From positions 1 through 64,000 of the forward strand of contig BCKZ01000023.1 in the NCBI GenBank assembly GCA_001600815.1: a DNA stretch of 64,000 bases, read 5' to 3'. The first letter of the stretch is position 1. Each line of letters opens with the position of its first letter. Both the position numbers and the translations under genes were made by a program. This DNA comes from Alloascoidea hylecoeti (lineage: Eukaryota). Under the pieces are notes generated by a model. That model was given only the letters and a program-made list of their open reading frames with translations. It was not told the DNA's origin and did no database searches. Of the stretch, positions 1 to 39,146 are shown one piece after another.

Positions 1-31
1 GCATGAAATAAGTTAATTAACAATGAAATAA

Positions 32-619
32 CAACAATTATCACATTATTTTGATACTGAAGAAGAAGATGAATCATTATTGTTAATGCCATCAAATACA
101 GAAATTATACCTAAGACATACAATGAATCTGACCACAAACAAGAATGGCTTGAAGCAATGGACAAGGAATCACAAAGCTTAAGAGATAATAAAGTATTTG
201 AAGAAACCTATGAACATGTTCCAAAATCTTCTATTGTTAGTTCCAGATGGGTTTATGCACTGAAGAACCTTGATTCAAAACCTTTGTACAAAGCAAGACT
301 AGTTGCAAAGGGCTTCTCACAAGAAAAAGGCATAAATTTCTCCTCTACATATTCTCCGGTTTCATCTCATGATAGTTTAAGAACACTGTTGTCTTTACAC
401 ACACAAAAACCAAATGAAATAATGGTTCAATTTGATGTAAAAACAGCCTTTCTTTCTTCAAACCTAAGTGAATGTATATACATGCACCCTCCATCCGGTA
501 TTAAATCAAAACCCAATTGTATTTGGAGACTTCATCGCTCTTTATATGGATTGAAACAATCACCCATGAACTTCTATCATAAAATCTCTGACGTTTTACA
601 ATCTATTGGTATGAAAAAT
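32..619 (+). mobile_element. Ty1/copia reverse transcriptase fragment (copy A), truncated
   Basis: ORF 80-625 has copia RT motifs W.EAM..E..SL, SSRWVY, YKARLVAKGFSQ..G, QFDVKTAFL and L.RSLYGLKQS. It breaks off at about 619, before YVDD. Confidence 0.93.
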
Positions 620-716
620 TCTTGATTTTATCATTGAAAAATAGACAAGGTTCAATTATAGTATTCTTTAAGCCAAATCTATCTAGCACTTCTTTCATGT
701 TGTTATAAAAGTTTAA
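620..716 (-). mobile_element. Inverted ~97-bp RT fragment, near-identical to 1111-1208
   Basis: tcttgattttatcattga...gtttaa is the reverse complement of 1111-1208 with only about 3 mismatches. Confidence 0.9.
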
Positions 717-892
717 TATAACGATTTTTACTGCTTTCTTATTAAGAAAAGTGATTAAGATAAAGGATGGAGAACTAAATCCAATGGTGGATTTAGTCTC
801 CTTTTATATTAATATTTATGTATATAAGTTATATAATTGTAAGTATAAATATTAAATAATAAATCGAAGTATGTAAGAAGTATTTTTCAACA
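717..892 (-). mobile_element. Solo/recombined LTR (~176 bp, TGTTG...TATA)
   Basis: The minus strand starts TGTTGAAAAATACTTCTTACATAC and aligns with the LTR at 4581 (TGTGAAATATACTTCTCACATAC). Both share the CTAAATCC-loop-GGATTTAG hairpin. The flanks (tttaa / taata) are not a TSD. Confidence 0.8.
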
Positions 893-2276
893 TAATATGT
901 TCCTGTTTCATCCTATGATTCACTCCGTACATTATTAGCTCTTCATGTTCAACAAAATTCAGAAACCATCGTACAGTTTGATATAAAAACCGCTTTCCTA
1001 TCTGCAAATTTATCTGAAGTCATTATGGTACAACCTCCTCCTGGACTTGCTATTCCACAAAACCACGTTTGGCGTCTTAAGAAATCTTTATATGGACTTA
1101 AACAAGCACCATTAAACTTCTATAACAAAATGAAAGAAGTGCTAGATAGATTTGGCTTAAAGAATACTATAATTGAACCTTGTCTATTATTCAATGATAA
1201 AATCAAGATTATATTATATGTTGATGACGGATTGATTTTCGGAAAAATGCAAGATATTAAAGAAATACTAGCAAAACTACAAATATTTCTTTACAGTCAA
1301 GGTTATGGAGTTTCCTCAAGTTTTTCTTGGTATTACTATATCCAAATTGGGGGATGGTAGTTTACATTTAGATCTAAGTAACTATTTGTCAAAAATTCAA
1401 AAGGAAAATAATATTACTCCCTCCTTCAAATCAAAAGTTCCAATGTCGTCCACATATGATATTTGCAATGATAATACTGAAAAATTAGATGAAGCCCAAA
1501 TAAAAGAATTTCAAAAGATTATAGGTATACTTACATATTGCACGTCAACAATTAGGGTAGATCTATGTTATCCAATTAATTTATTGGCCAGAAAGTTGAA
1601 AGCTCCAACCCAAAGCAACTTACAACAAGCAAAGAAAGTGTTAAGTTATGAAATATCTACTAAGTTCAAGGGAATTAATTATCAAAAGAACAAGAAATTA
1701 GACAATAAGGTTACTGAAACTGCATTTATAAAGGAACATGAAACAAGTAAAATTGAGTTTAATAACAAATTAACTATTACTACTATTACAGACGCAACTT
1801 GGGCAGATGGCAAAGATCGTACAAGCAATCATGGATACATAACTTTTCTAGAAAATAACATGATAAGCTTGAAAAGTCTGTTGAAACTATATTTAGAATT
1901 ATATAAATAAGATAATTATATAATTCTAAATATAGTTTCAACATTCTCGCTATTTTAGAATTTTATACAAAATATAGTAAAAAATAAATAATAAAATAAG
2001 TATAAAATAAGTTTAAAAATAGTTAATATAAAATAAGTTTCTCAAATAAGTTTTTCATAATAATAAAATAATAGGTTAATATGAAATTGATAAAATAAAA
2101 CAATAAAATGAGTAATAATANNNNNNNNNNNNNNNNNNNNNNNNNNNNNNNNNNNNNNNNNNNNNNNNNNNNNNNNNNNNNNNNNNNNNNNNNNNNNNNN
2201 NNNNNNNNNNNNNNNNNNNNNNNNNNNNNNNNNNNNNNNNNNNNNNNNNNNNNNNNNNNNNNNNNNNNNNNNNNNN

Positions 2277-3611
2277 CAAAACAGTTTCTTCTTTAAAATC
2301 ATTTGGAGTAAGTTCCCAAAAGCGGTCCTTTTTCTCAGCTTGCAAGATAATATTATTATTTTTAGAAATAGTGGCATGTTCTTTTGTTAAATTAATTTGA
2401 TAACCTTGTTTGGTGAGTAAATCGCCTGAAATAATATTACGATCGGCTTTAGGATAAACCTTGACATGATGTAATACTAAATTGTTGATTTTTAAATCGC
2501 CTTCTAAAACCTTGGTTGGTGTATTATCAATTCCTTTGACAGTAGTGGATGATGGTTTTACATTTGTTAACAATGATTGATCGGTAACCAGATGACAACT
2601 AGATCCGCTATCAAGAATAAAAGGAGTTTCAGAAATATAAAATATTTCATCGGGGTTTTCCANTTTTCCATCATTAATTTCCGTGTAATATACCATAGTA
2701 TCCAAGGGTAATTCAATATATTGTACGTGGTCAAAATTCTTTTTATCCTTTTTAGGATCGTACTTANGACAGTTAGGACCAGTATGACCGAATTTCCGAC
2801 AAATGTAACATTTAATTCTGTTTTTGATTTCAGAATTAGCGTTTGAATGANTAACCAATTTTTGAGATACNTTGTTTCCATCAATATTATTTGATTTGTT
2901 CGCCTTAACATANTTAATTTCTTCAGAATCGTATGATTTAATTGAATTAAATTTTTTAACCTGAGTAATTAATTTTCTGTGTGATACGTTTTNAAAATCA
3001 AAATAATTGGATAAATTGTTTCTCATGACAATATTATCAATTTTTTCTGCAGTAGTATTGAACAATGTATAGTAAGGGATAAATTCTTTAATATTGACGA
3101 AGTAATAAGACATAATAGTGACATGATTATTAAAATCCTTGTANTCAGAACCATGTTCTAAAACATTCTTAGTGAATTTTTTAAGTAACATTAANCGGTC
3201 TAGAACATCAAAATTTTTAATACTGAACGATGTGTAAATTTCATGATAGAGTTGTATTCCATTATATGCNGGATCAAAATTTTCTAGTACTGTTTTGCTG
3301 AATCTAGATTTAATCATTGTGTCTAGAAGTCTGCAAAAATTAACCGGGAATTTGTTTCCATGATACATAGTTTCAATAAATTCAATATTAAATGATGAGT
3401 CAACGAACATATTTTGAAAAATGTTCATAATCCATGCATTAANGACAGGGAAGTAATAGCCATGATCAAATGTTTCAAATTTTTCGTTTTTGATTGATTC
3501 AAATTGAGTTTTGAAGCAATCGAAGTTCATATCACCACCAGTAACGGTAAGATCGTTGAANGTGAGTGATCTTATTTGTCTATCTGATGTAGGGGATACG
3601 TCAGAAGACAT
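2277..3611 (-). CDS. Gag-protease polyprotein (partial, runs into the assembly gap)
   Basis: CCHC zinc knuckle CYICRKFGHTGPNC (2769-2810) is followed in frame by a copia protease (FILDSGSSCHLV...L.HVKVYP...RNIIS...L...GY). Confidence 0.9.
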
Positions 3612-3673
3612 GGTTGAATTGATAAGTTAAAGTAAAAAGTAAGTTTTTGTGTAGCAATTAATAGTAAGAGTCT

Positions 3674-3687
3674 AAAGATTGGAAATC
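3674..3687 (-). promoter_or_regulatory. Primer-binding site, complementary to the tRNA-Ser(IGA) anticodon arm
   Basis: GATTTCCAATCTTT directly follows the LTR end. It is complementary to AAAGAUU-I-GAAAUC (nt 27-40 of yeast tRNA-Ser AGA as I recall it). Confidence 0.7.
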
Positions 3688-4580
3688 TATAAAACTTTTA
3701 ACTTTTAATAGTTAAGAATATGAATAAAATAAAGGATAGAGAAAGAAATCCTGAGGAGGATTTCTTCTCTTTTTATATTTCTTTTTATTCATATTCTTAA
3801 CTATTAAAAGTTAAAAGTTTTATAAAGTCAAAAGGTATCTTCAATAACTCTTAGTACTTCTGAAAGTGAACTTATTGCTATTTGTTATGGAACTCGACAT
3901 GCTCTATTTGTTCGCAATCTACTAAGAGAATTTAATATGTCGACTAACCCAATAAATATTATTAATGATAATCAATCTGCTTTAATGATGGGTACCAATA
4001 GGACAGGTAGAAATAAACACATAAAAGTTAAGTTCTTTTTTACACGACAACTAGTTGAAGCGAATGAAATAAAGCTTCACTACATTCAAACAAAAGAGAA
4101 TATATCTGACCCTTTAACAAAAAATTTATATCGTTCTCAATATAACTTACTTATGAACAAAATCATGAATTAAAAGTATTACTTATTCTTATAAAATGTT
4201 ATCTTAATTGTTTTTTCTCATCTTATTCATTCTTTGTTTTATTTTTATTTCATACTTATTTTTATCTTATAAATCTTTGTTATTTATTTAAAAATCTCTT
4301 AAAACTTATCATTTTATACAATATACTTTATTCTTCAAGATGTTAATTCAATTTATCTTATTATTTTTGTTATATTTATCCAAATATACTTATTTTTCTT
4401 ATACCTTTTTATCTTGATATGCTTATCTCAAATATCTCAAAATTTGTGTTATTTACATTTCAAAACACTTATTTTATATTTATTAACTTTTATTATATCT
4501 AAGAAAATGTTTGTTTCTATTTAAAACTTATTTCTATACTTTTTATTTTTAAATTCTTATATGTATCAAAGTTCTGAGAA

Positions 4581-4707
4581 TGTGAAATATACTTCTCACA
4601 TACTGCGATTTATTATTTAATTATGAATAACTTATATCCTTATATACTTAAAATTAATATAAATAGAGGCTAAATCCCTCTAAGGATTTAGTTCTCTATC
4701 CTATATG
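4581..4707 (+). mobile_element. 3' LTR of the outer element, 3'-truncated
   Basis: Homologous to the 717-892 LTR. It is preceded by GAGAA, as is the nested element's 3' LTR. Confidence 0.75.
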
Positions 4708-5500
4708 CTAGAAATAGGAAGGTACGCTGCCCAGGATATCGATGCTAAAATTGAAACGGGTGTAAAGTCCATTTTTGTGTGTGTACAGCCCGATCAAGTC
4801 TCGAAGCTTAAAAAAAGTTTTATAACCTGCCACTAAAGATACCCTGATCCACAAGGTCTCGGTATTTTGAATGAGGCATCGGCATTCGGTATTTCCTTTA
4901 TAACATATGGGAGGGCTCATAATTGGAATTCCTGCCCTGTAATAAACTTTTATGAAGAGATTCCAAATGTGATCAATTGGGGTCTCCTCCGCTCAAAAAA
5001 CCAACCATTCCAACATATCTATCTTCTCCTAACGAACCCAATTCATCGTAGTTCCAGATGTATAGATAGACCTGTTATCCAACTTTAATAAGGCACTCTC
5101 ATAAATCTAATTAAAGACCACTCGCAAATCTTCTATGTAGAAACATGTGATGGATCCTTTTTTCTGCAATTAGGATGCCCAACTATTCTATACGGAGAAT
5201 TATGGTTTCCTTTCCAAATTTCAGTCAATACTATAAGGCACATGGACTCATTCAAAGGCATGGTGGTTGTCAAGAATATCATTTTCCAGACCCGGATCCT
5301 GTGCCACAAAATTCGTCACTAAATAAAACACCATCACAAAAGTCATTATACCATTTCAGTCTACTTTTAGGCAATACCATTCTTTTCATTTGGTTTTTTT
5401 TATTCAGATAAAAGCAATTATATGATGGAAATATTACGTATTCTTGTATTTACAGAAGTGAAATATTAAGCATTTTGATTACTTGGAAACTGAGGAACTA
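4708..5500 (+). mobile_element. Degenerate non-LTR (L1/Zorro-like) ORF2 C-terminal remnant
   Basis: Broken frames read KIETGVKSIF...P...QGLGILN (post-RT P...GGLG-like motif), ET..MDPFFC (CCHC-like) and IWFFLFR. Confidence 0.4.
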
Positions 5501-24949: not shown

Positions 24950-25775
24950 GCTGTAAGCTGAAATCACGATGAATTGGTTTCGTAAGAAGAAAATAAAAGT
25001 GTTGAAGTGGTCGCCATTTTTACCAGACCTGTCAATTTGAGCACATTTGGAATCTCCTCAAATAAATTCATCATAAGGCAGGAACTACGATTATGAGCCT
25101 TCCACACGATATAGAACTAAAGAAAGATCAATTATTTATGTCTCTTCTAAAATACTGAGACCAAAAAAAAAGGCTATATAACAGTCGCTGTAAATCCAGA
25201 AACGGCATTTTCAAGGGTTATACCTTTTGATATTTCCTCCTGATGCAGTGTAATACAACCCCTTCCTTAGTGAGCCAAAGCTGGAAACATCTCACACTGG
25301 AGTTTCTCAGCCAACATTCGCGGGAAAAATGAAGAGTCTGATACTAACTGTATACCTGTTTCAAAATTCTAAATATGAGAGATTCCCGATGTTGTATTAA
25401 GAGAATCTCTCTCTAAGTAATATACACCATTCGCAAAGATCTAGAATAGCAGCGAACCCATTTTAGAATCAAAAGTTGCTGAATTAGATCCCGCTATTCA
25501 AAGGCAGACACAAGCATTTGATTTTGGTCGGAGTCTTGTTTTGATTCATCATTTATCGTGGAAGTGAACGTGAAGAGTCGATTATGAGATACCAAATTTG
25601 TCGGAAACTTTCAGATATGAAATCTTGATGTGTTGTCCCTTATAAGCAACTTGCTTTAATGATAGTTCTCATTCTTTATATTGTGCGTGCCATTTTGAAT
25701 TCTGGTGGTGAGGAACTTTTGAGTTGGATTAATTTGGGAACTTTTTCATATTTTGGGGTGGTCGTCCACCAATTA
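24950..25775 (-). pseudogene. Fot1/pogo-type DNA transposase relic with an internal deletion
   Basis: Broken frames give a psq-like HTH (SYLKVSDKFGIS*STL), a CENP-B-like helix (Q.ML...E.RDLI), ILLI..., IRLFIFPAN, DVSSFGSLRK (QPLDV-like) and ITLENAVSGFTAT. Confidence 0.7.
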
Positions 25776-39062: not shown

Positions 39063-39146
39063 TCTCCTGGGGGTGAATCGAACACCCGATCTCAAGATTA
39101 TTGATCCATTACAGTCTCGCGCCTTAGCCAACTGGGCCACCAGGAG
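39063..39146 (-). tRNA. tRNA-Tyr(GTA) with a 10-nt intron (39108-39099)
   Basis: CTCCTGG/CCAGGAG acceptor stem, D loop AGTTGG, anticodon arm CGAGA-CTGTAA|intron|A-TCTTG, T loop TTCGATT. Confidence 0.95.

Follow-up and report, generated by a model that had tools for sequence, protein, structure and literature searches.

Which molecule primes reverse transcription of the retrotransposon on the minus strand of this Alloascoidea hylecoeti contig? The question is raised by the 14 nucleotides directly past the end of its long terminal repeat (LTR), where the usual TGG is absent and where the letters are, with one exception, complementary to the anticodon arm of a serine tRNA. We analysed the whole 64,000-nt stretch (the window) together with public sequencing runs, a protein collection, and metagenome, viral and prokaryote sequences. 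Judged from sequence comparison, the 14-mer is probably the primer-binding site (PBS) of a Ty1/copia element that uses the 5' half of tRNA-Ser(IGA) as its primer, a C being placed opposite the inosine.

A 14-nt segment directly follows the LTR end

Read on the minus strand, positions 3687..3674 are GATTTCCAATCTTT and follow the LTR end ...GTTTTATA (3688) with a spacer of 0 nt. The order at the junction is ...AAAAGTTTTATA / GATTTCCAATCTTT / AGACTCTTAC... or, with a longer reading upstream of the 14-mer, ...AAAAGTTAAAAGTTTTATA / GATTTCCAATCTTT / AGACTCTTAC.... The first-pass annotation had given a span of 3674-3690, which is the 14-mer plus the last three LTR bases, and had stated that no usual TGG PBS stands directly after the 5' LTR end TATA. 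The minus-strand reading agrees, as neither TGG nor any other tRNA-like match is present after the LTR end in this copy. The gag ATG lies at 3611, 62 nt downstream of the 14-mer.

3674..3687, minus strand: putative minus-strand PBS GATTTCCAATCTTT; predicted pairing with tRNA-Ser nt 40..27, C3681 opposite position 34
3612..3673, minus strand: 5' untranslated leader, 62 nt, from the PBS to the gag ATG

Within the 64 kb the exact 14-mer occurs once. With up to two mismatches allowed, five matches were found in the window (2.56 expected), and the other four have two mismatches each.

The first 9 letters of the leader AGACTCTTAC (3660-3673 region, just past the 14-mer) equal the sense strand of a tRNA-Lys arm, to which the PBS of the fungal element FunCo1, ATTAAGAGTCT, is complementary (PMC5445492). 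Because the leader start is in sense orientation and would be unable to bind tRNA-Lys, this likeness is taken as a coincidence.

The segment is complementary to the anticodon arm of yeast tRNA-Ser(AGA)

The reverse complement of the 14-mer, AAAGATTGGAAATC, is identical to nt 27-40 of Saccharomyces cerevisiae tRNA-Ser(AGA) except for a G in place of A34 (nt 27-40, with 26 nt preceding the arm: AAAGATTAGAAATC). The sequence of this tRNA is printed in bioRxiv 10.1101/422972, and a probe for its anticodon loop is given in Table 2 of PMC7200024. Pairing therefore extends over 13/14 positions against the tRNA gene and over 14/14 when I34 is read as G. It stops exactly before G26, with which the next base, A3673, does not pair; at the other end of the duplex only A3688 could extend the pairing (with U41). 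Extra complementarity between the first 26 nt of the tRNA and the leader, as in Ty1/Ty3, was not found (104/300 shuffles were as good). The element thus has the arrangement of half-tRNA primed elements, namely a putative PBS directly after the LTR, complementarity to an anticodon arm, and an end near nt 39-41.

To see the arm in other genomes, metagenome contigs were scanned for the arm (A or G at position 34) combined with class-II spacing and a T-loop motif, which yielded 90 stretches at 80 loci. Genes for tRNA-Ser(AGA) were found at 67 of the 80 (11 distinct 82-nt bodies; locus G+C 0.33-0.51), although the pattern required the arm and the counts say nothing on yeasts with another arm. G26 is present in all 67 genes. 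No tRNA-Ser(GGA) was found at the 80 loci matching the arm motif with A or G, and in the 13 loci without a tRNA call the motif has G in 8 and A in 5. The scan shows an anticodon arm that is common to several yeast-like genomes, not necessarily to all. The first-pass annotation had proposed that the 14 nt pair with nt 27-40 of tRNA-Ser(AGA) and that the sole mismatch is a C opposite position 34; the pairing holds for the S. cerevisiae sequence and for 67/80 metagenome loci, and comparison with tRNA-Ser(AGA) confirmed the position of the mismatch.

The arm is nearly palindromic, and in phage contigs the same motif marks tRNA-Gly(TCC) at 23 and tRNA-Arg(TCT) at 13 of 80 loci, on the other strand; complementarity to the element RNA exists for the Ser reading only. 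By arm motif, tRNA-Ser(AGA) was found at 0/80 scanned loci in viral contigs. The arm motif combined with class-II spacing gave 5 matches and 0 tRNAs in viral contigs, and 0 matches in prokaryote genomes.

A random 14-mer with the composition of the window has a probability of 1.1e-6 of matching a single given tRNA segment with no more than one mismatch. This scales to ~3e-3 over ~2600 tRNA windows and to 2e-4 over 42 tRNAs x 4 registers, these numbers of windows and registers being rough assumptions.

LTR ends and a target duplication delimit an inserted unit

Four LTR 3' ends in the window all stop at (T)TATA and are followed by four unrelated sequences: the 14-mer; Pol AAGTCAAAAGG at 3825; single-copy ACCTGCC at 4825; and an inverted RT fragment at ~716. 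The LTRs begin with TGTTG or TGTGA, and in two cases this start immediately follows a purine tract that ends in GAGAA; at the other end of the minus-strand element the PPT-like AGCGAGAA abuts the LTR start TGTTG. The LTR termini of this family are TG...TA, and not the TG...CA usual for Ty1/copia elements.

1874..1878, plus strand: left target-site duplication AAGTC, in the interrupted older Pol
3825..3829, plus strand: right target-site duplication AAGTC
1944..1951, minus strand: PPT-like AGCGAGAA, abutting the start of the 3' LTR; LTR B is preceded by TCTGAGAA
4581..4824, plus strand: LTR B, the 3' LTR of an older element; follows TCTGAGAA, has TGTGAAATAT as its start and GTTTTATA as its end, and gives way to single-copy DNA
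717..892, minus strand: LTR C; starts TGTTGAAAAATAC, ends CGTTATA beside the inverted RT fragment

For LTR C, an alternative end at ...TTTTATAACAACA (CAACA) was considered and rejected, as this stretch is RT coding sequence (LNFYNNM) of the inverted fragment.

A 5-bp target duplication, AAGTC, is found at 1874-1878 and 3825-3829 and bounds the unit. The older plus-strand Pol reads ...MISLKS up to 1878 and resumes with SQKVSS... at 3826, with AAGTC on both sides. An intact Pol copy in run X5 (a loose end) continues ...GCTGGA before 3824, and the related protein P0001 reads NNMISFKSKKIGNITLSTSE at the interrupted site. Because AAGTC stands on both sides and Pol is uninterrupted in X5 and P0001, positions 1879-3824 form a single inserted unit, whose plus-strand ends are TGTTGAAAC... 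and ...GTTTTATA. Taken together, four LTR copies with four different flanks and the AAGTC duplication show that the TATA boundary is real.

The copy in the window is rearranged

While gag, the 14-mer and the PPT-like tract lie on the minus strand, the outer ends of the unit have plus-strand polarity. The pieces responsible are the following.

3783..3824, minus strand: the LTR's last 42 nt repeated without mismatch in inverted orientation, in place of the normal first part of the LTR; its plus-strand end GTTTTATA adjoins the target duplication
3730..3782, minus strand: 53-nt LTR core with its own hairpin (AGAGAAGAAATCC / GGATTTCTTTCTCT), common to LTRs B and C
3688..3729, minus strand: U5-side terminal 42 nt of the 5' LTR, with GTTTTATA as its end at 3688; X1 contig 2914-3717 joins this LTR end to the 14-mer and gag
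1952..2120, minus strand: AT-rich 3' untranslated region of the minus-strand element
1879..1943, minus strand: 3' LTR stub, made of the first 44 nt of the LTR (TGTTGAAAC..., 1943..1900) and then an inverted copy of its first 21 nt (1899..1879)

In minus-strand order, the unit consists of the inverted last 42 nt of the LTR, the 53-nt core, the last 42 nt of the LTR, the 14-mer, the leader and gag-PR, followed by a gap, the AT-rich 3' region, AGCGAGAA, the first 44 nt of the LTR and the inverted first 21 nt. The fold-back of the 3' LTR stub has 31-nt arms (97%).

Other LTR copies, in runs X1, X3 and X5, depart from the window at 3787 and continue with the rest of the first 44 nt; a normal LTR is therefore ~149 nt long and is not a palindrome. 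The junction 3824/3825 is carried by the single-copy X1 contig 3795-4272, and none of the contigs listed for the public runs spans 3718-3794. At position 3728, 7/7 X1 contigs have G where the window has A. The fold-backs may be real, from an inversion that lost sequence at both joints, or they may have arisen where the assembly took a shortcut through palindromes. Under either of these two readings the window copy would be left without a normal U3, and it is probably dead. Of the 5' LTR described in the first-pass annotation, the LTR end at TATA stands, whereas this copy is rearranged and the supposed 5' LTR is a fold-back.

Element class

The coding capacity of the minus-strand element is interrupted by a scaffold gap, and its class was assigned from the part that is present, from neighbouring fragments and from protein relatives.

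2277..3611, minus strand: gag-protease ORF, 445 codons, open into the N gap; CX2CX4HX4C knuckle and LDSGSS
2121..2276: run of N, a scaffold gap; IN-RT-RNase H of the minus-strand element would fall here

From gag to PR there is one open frame with no stop or frameshift between. The ORF has a Pfam match to Pol_BBD (E 1.6e-7), and RVT_2 is found in the neighbouring plus-strand fragments and in the 47%-identical relative P0001; the copia-type domains are thus Pol_BBD in the element itself and RVT_2 from its neighbours and P0001. Relatives of gag in the protein collection number only three (P0001, 47%; P0002, 34%; P0003, 76%), with 0 in viral contigs and 0 in metagenome contigs. P0001 is a single ORF of 1500 aa, and its nearest Atlas cluster is auto-named 'Ty5 Gag N-terminal', a name that serves as a lead only and has no corresponding match in Pfam. 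Eleven single Ns are spread across gag-PR (2663-3561). Since an X1 contig ends beside the N at 2913, they probably mark sites that vary between collapsed element copies.

That the locus holds an LTR retrotransposon, as first proposed, is upheld by Pol_BBD, by RVT_2 in the neighbours, and by the PPT, LTR starts and 5-bp target duplication. The whole anatomy is present (the AAGTC duplication, AGCGAGAA/TGTTG and TATA/14-mer), with both LTRs being fold-back stubs.

The same junction in public contigs

To ask whether the junction is peculiar to the window copy, we turned to contigs from public runs. Contigs of X1, X3 and X4, from three studies, cover 3271-3689 or 3271-3717 and carry the gag/leader/14-mer/LTR-end junction with 0, 0 and 1 other letters (at 3567).

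X1 (2016): junction-contig word depth 735; single-copy flank 57
X3 (2023): junction-contig word depth 86; single-copy flank 8.8
X4, wood-decay metagenome (2020): junction-contig word depth 101; single-copy flank 10.7

In these three runs the junction depth is ~9-13 times the single-copy depth, a depth being no copy number. We read this as roughly ten near-identical element copies, or as partly extrachromosomal DNA. An X5 contig covering 3568-3735 has 2 other letters and 1 gap (3728 is the one listed), and a more diverged gag copy, with 35 differences over 261 nt, breaks off at 3587, short of the PBS. The first-pass annotation had asked for conservation of the 14-mer in other copies, and the public contigs do show the same junction, in near-identical copies. 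Because the copies are young and near-identical, the shared junction and its C are inherited by descent and are not independent evidence. The family may be active, given that it is multi-copy and near-identical.

In loose ends at 3673 (X1) and 3674 (X3) the LTR end and the 14-mer run into other sequences, which may reflect either rearrangements or further subfamilies with the same PBS. Their flanks have no counterpart in the window, the best matches being 9-14 nt. The X1 flank bears a faint resemblance, judged by eye, to the D-arm of tRNA-Ser (9 of the last 13), to which we give no weight.

Neighbourhood of the element

The window has ~30% G+C and long intron-less ORFs, and one host protein in it matches Ascomycota F-box clusters in the Atlas (a lead only). 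Scrambled copia-type pieces are clustered at positions 1-4824; in some yeasts, centromeres are marked by clusters of the Ty5 type (PMC13017519).

86-625 and 1025-1910 (RT), 3825-4173 (RNase H), 4581-4824 (LTR B), plus strand: older copia element, interrupted by the unit 1879-3824
3825..4173, plus strand: RNase H C-terminus of the older copia element
39063-39146, minus strand: tRNA-Tyr(GTA) gene, 10-nt intron; no other tRNA gene lies in the window

LTR C is flanked by an inverted duplicate of an RT piece (arms 610-717 and 1111-1218, 94%). The AT-rich region between the Pol stop and the PPT (4174-4580 and 1952-2120) holds many ATAAGT-like words. In some X3 and X4 copies 365 nt of it are missing (4175 is joined to 4541), which makes its length variable among copies.

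The four LTR-like sequences in the window share the hairpin-bearing core. In the core hairpin (3736-3768, 4663-4700 and 780-815) pairing is kept between LTR A (..GAAGAAATCC / GGATTTCTTTC..) and LTRs B and C (..GACTAAATCC / GGATTTAGTTC..), with both sides changed at two pairs (by eye, three sequences). This pattern suggests that the hairpin is under selection, as RNA or as DNA.

A pair of 67-nt inverted repeats, 4910-4976 and 25037-25103, is 81% complementary over a distance of 20 kb, and one copy has an iMet-like CTCATAA loop motif. An iMet-like arm with an intron at 4850-5000 was rejected, since ARAGORN, with introns allowed, reported no tRNA there. Rfam at gathering thresholds gave 0 matches in the whole window.

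Proposed priming

We propose that the element is a young, multi-copy Ty1/copia-type LTR retrotransposon with gag-pol as one ORF, and that its primer would be not a tRNA 3' end but a 5' piece of cytoplasmic tRNA-Ser(AGA) in which position 34 is inosine. Cleavage of the tRNA would fall within the 3' strand of its anticodon stem, past nt 40 (or 41). The last 14 nt of the primer (27-40) would then pair with the RNA directly past U5, and reverse transcriptase would extend it through U5-R. Plus-strand strong-stop DNA would later copy the primer back, with I34 read as G so that a C is written into the PBS, and this synthesis would halt at dimethylated G26, leaving a complementarity of exactly 14 nt. 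The anatomy of the element, the complementarity to the tRNA of other yeasts and the junction are observed; the sequence of the host tRNA, the cut, the priming and the copying of inosine are what we infer.

The best partner of inosine is C, and reverse transcriptase reads inosine as G; Watson-Crick pairing is blocked by m2,2G. Given an I read as G and a block at m2,2G, both the C at 3681 and the 14-nt length would follow from copying the primer back. One further modification counts against this proposal: i6A37 would fall within the tRNA-Ser/PBS duplex, where it presumably weakens hybridisation. An anticodon-loop probe for tRNA-Ser(AGA) is among the oligos of the i6A37 hybridisation assay in PMC7200024. 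According to PMC10275265, all eukaryotic A34 tRNAs are deaminated to I34, and m2,2G26 is present in 21/22 characterised S. cerevisiae tRNAs with G26.

We give somewhat less than an even chance to a broader hypothesis, in which the lineage changed over to priming by the 5' half of tRNA-Ser(IGA) and its genome copies are imprinted by two tRNA modifications (I34 rewritten each cycle, and a stop at m2,2G26), the same switch having moved the U5 end and left TA-ended LTRs that still integrate with 5-bp duplications.

Alternative explanations

The serine tRNA half might be the primer without the C being the copy of an inosine: the family is young, and its founder may simply have carried a fixed substitution opposite position 34. 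The near-identity of the junction contigs (0-1 other letters over ~420 nt) fits this, since one mutation would explain them all, and T to C is a transition. Yet a random single change has odds of ~1 in 42 of placing a C at position 34 (14 positions x 3 letters), and in retroviruses the PBS is regenerated from the primer, which also speaks against a founder substitution. Moreover, A34 is inosine in all eukaryotes according to PMC10275265, so that C would be the better partner anyway. We consider a founder substitution unlikely. A true G34 in the host tRNA, as in tRNA-Ser(GGA) or similar, would give a 14/14 match with no inosine involved, and the complement AAAGATTGGAAATC does read as a Ser(GGA)-type arm. 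However, tRNA-Ser(GGA) is absent from the 80 arm-motif metagenome loci, against 67 with Ser(AGA), and to our knowledge eukaryotes as a rule have A34/I34, not G34, for this codon box, which makes such a tRNA very improbable.

Other explanations do without a serine tRNA. A chance resemblance, with the 14-mer being merely the start of the leader and the element primed in another, unrecognised way, gains from the AT-richness of both the region and the tRNA arm, from the shortness of 14 nt and a match that rests on the tRNA of other yeasts and not the host's own, and from the lack of extra pairing between tRNA and leader. Against it stand the estimated chance of 2e-4 to 3e-3, the lack of TGG or another tRNA-like match past the LTR, and both ends of the pairing: one falls exactly at G26, the other at C40, near the nt 39-40 cut that the first-pass annotation cited for Tca2, copia and Ty5. 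The register of the Tca2 PBS 11-mer quoted there reportedly ends at C40 as well. Such a coincidence seems improbable. Self-priming of the Tf1 kind would have the 14-mer pair with AAAGAGAAGAAATC in the LTR core, the 5' arm of the LTR hairpin. Here 11/14 positions are complementary and the core is a conserved hairpin, but a match as good is reached by 3.4-3.7% of the 14-mers when random or shuffled (170 and 184 of 5000), the three mismatches are central, and Tf1 requires perfect pairing with the first mRNA bases (PMC5445492); we hold self-priming to be highly unlikely. Least credible of all is that the 14-mer is no binding site but was captured, in sense orientation, from a tRNA anticodon arm of the Gly(UCC) or Arg type. 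In sense it does equal nt 30-43 of Gly(TCC) arms, and 36/80 arm-motif loci in phage contigs are tRNA-Gly(TCC) (23) or tRNA-Arg(TCT) (13) on the other strand; those tRNAs, however, are phage or bacterial, a sense copy would have no role at this place, and position and register fit a PBS.

Comparison with known systems

Priming by a half-tRNA has its founding case in Drosophila copia (PMC5371799), which would share this kind of primer with the A. hylecoeti element but uses initiator tRNA-Met and has an insect host. Ty5 and its relatives have a PBS for an initiator tRNA-Met half and LTRs of the form TGTTG...CAACA (PMC13017519; for Ty5 also PMC5371799). Like the present element, the Ty5 lineage (S. 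cerevisiae/paradoxus Ty5, Tca5 and Saccharomycodes ludwigii Ty5) has a single ORF, the LTR start TGTTG and a primer (for the present element a proposed one) from the anticodon stem-loop of a cut tRNA (PMC13017519; PMC5371799), and a single gag-pol ORF is the Ty5-like state (PMC4022208), here seen as 445 open codons from gag into PR and as the one 1500-aa ORF of P0001. The two differ in primer and LTR end: initiator tRNA-Met and CAACA in Ty5, a tRNA-Ser match and four LTRs ending TATA in A. hylecoeti, where TGTTG is present, CAACA is absent and the PBS matches Ser.

The Candida albicans families described in the review PMC4139406 have a PBS for a stretch inside tRNA-Arg(UCU) or iMet, and none of the seven PBS classes given there is for Ser. 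Among them, Tca2 (pCal) and the related copia families with gamma and whio LTRs are likewise Ty1/copia elements with a PBS for an internal region of an elongator tRNA (PMC4139406). Tca2 differs in its primer, tRNA-Arg(UCU) as against the putative Ser, in a paired stretch that includes no A34/I34, and in an in-frame stop between gag and pol (PMC7175516; PMC4022208) where the A. hylecoeti element is open from gag to PR; the PBS of the latter has no match to the Arg reading. FunCo1 of filamentous ascomycetes is another fungal copia element with an internal elongator-tRNA PBS, complementary to an internal region of tRNA-Lys (PMC5445492). It differs in this tRNA, in having no inosine position and in its Pezizomycotina hosts. 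Tf1 of Schizosaccharomyces pombe likewise lacks TGG in its PBS, which directly follows the LTR, and has hairpins in LTR or leader. Its PBS pairs perfectly with the start of its own mRNA, whereas the best internal match in the A. hylecoeti element is 11/14, at the ~3.5% chance level.

Half-tRNA primers are known from few tRNA species (iMet, Arg(UCU) and Lys), and the cutting and choice of the tRNA are poorly understood. If the proposed priming is true, an A-to-I edited base within the pairing would be a natural experiment, in which the letter facing position 34 reveals whether mature, modified tRNA is the template for re-copying the PBS, and the PBS end at G26 would mark where plus-strand strong-stop synthesis halts. 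A yeast family with TG...TA LTRs that still makes 5-bp duplications would also bear on the needs of integrase. Our literature search, with the older surveys (Neuveglise 2002; Goodwin & Poulter 2000; Ke 1999), Repbase and GyDB outside its scope, found no family primed by a Ser half-tRNA. Half-tRNA priming itself is known from these systems; what is proposed here is the serine tRNA as primer.
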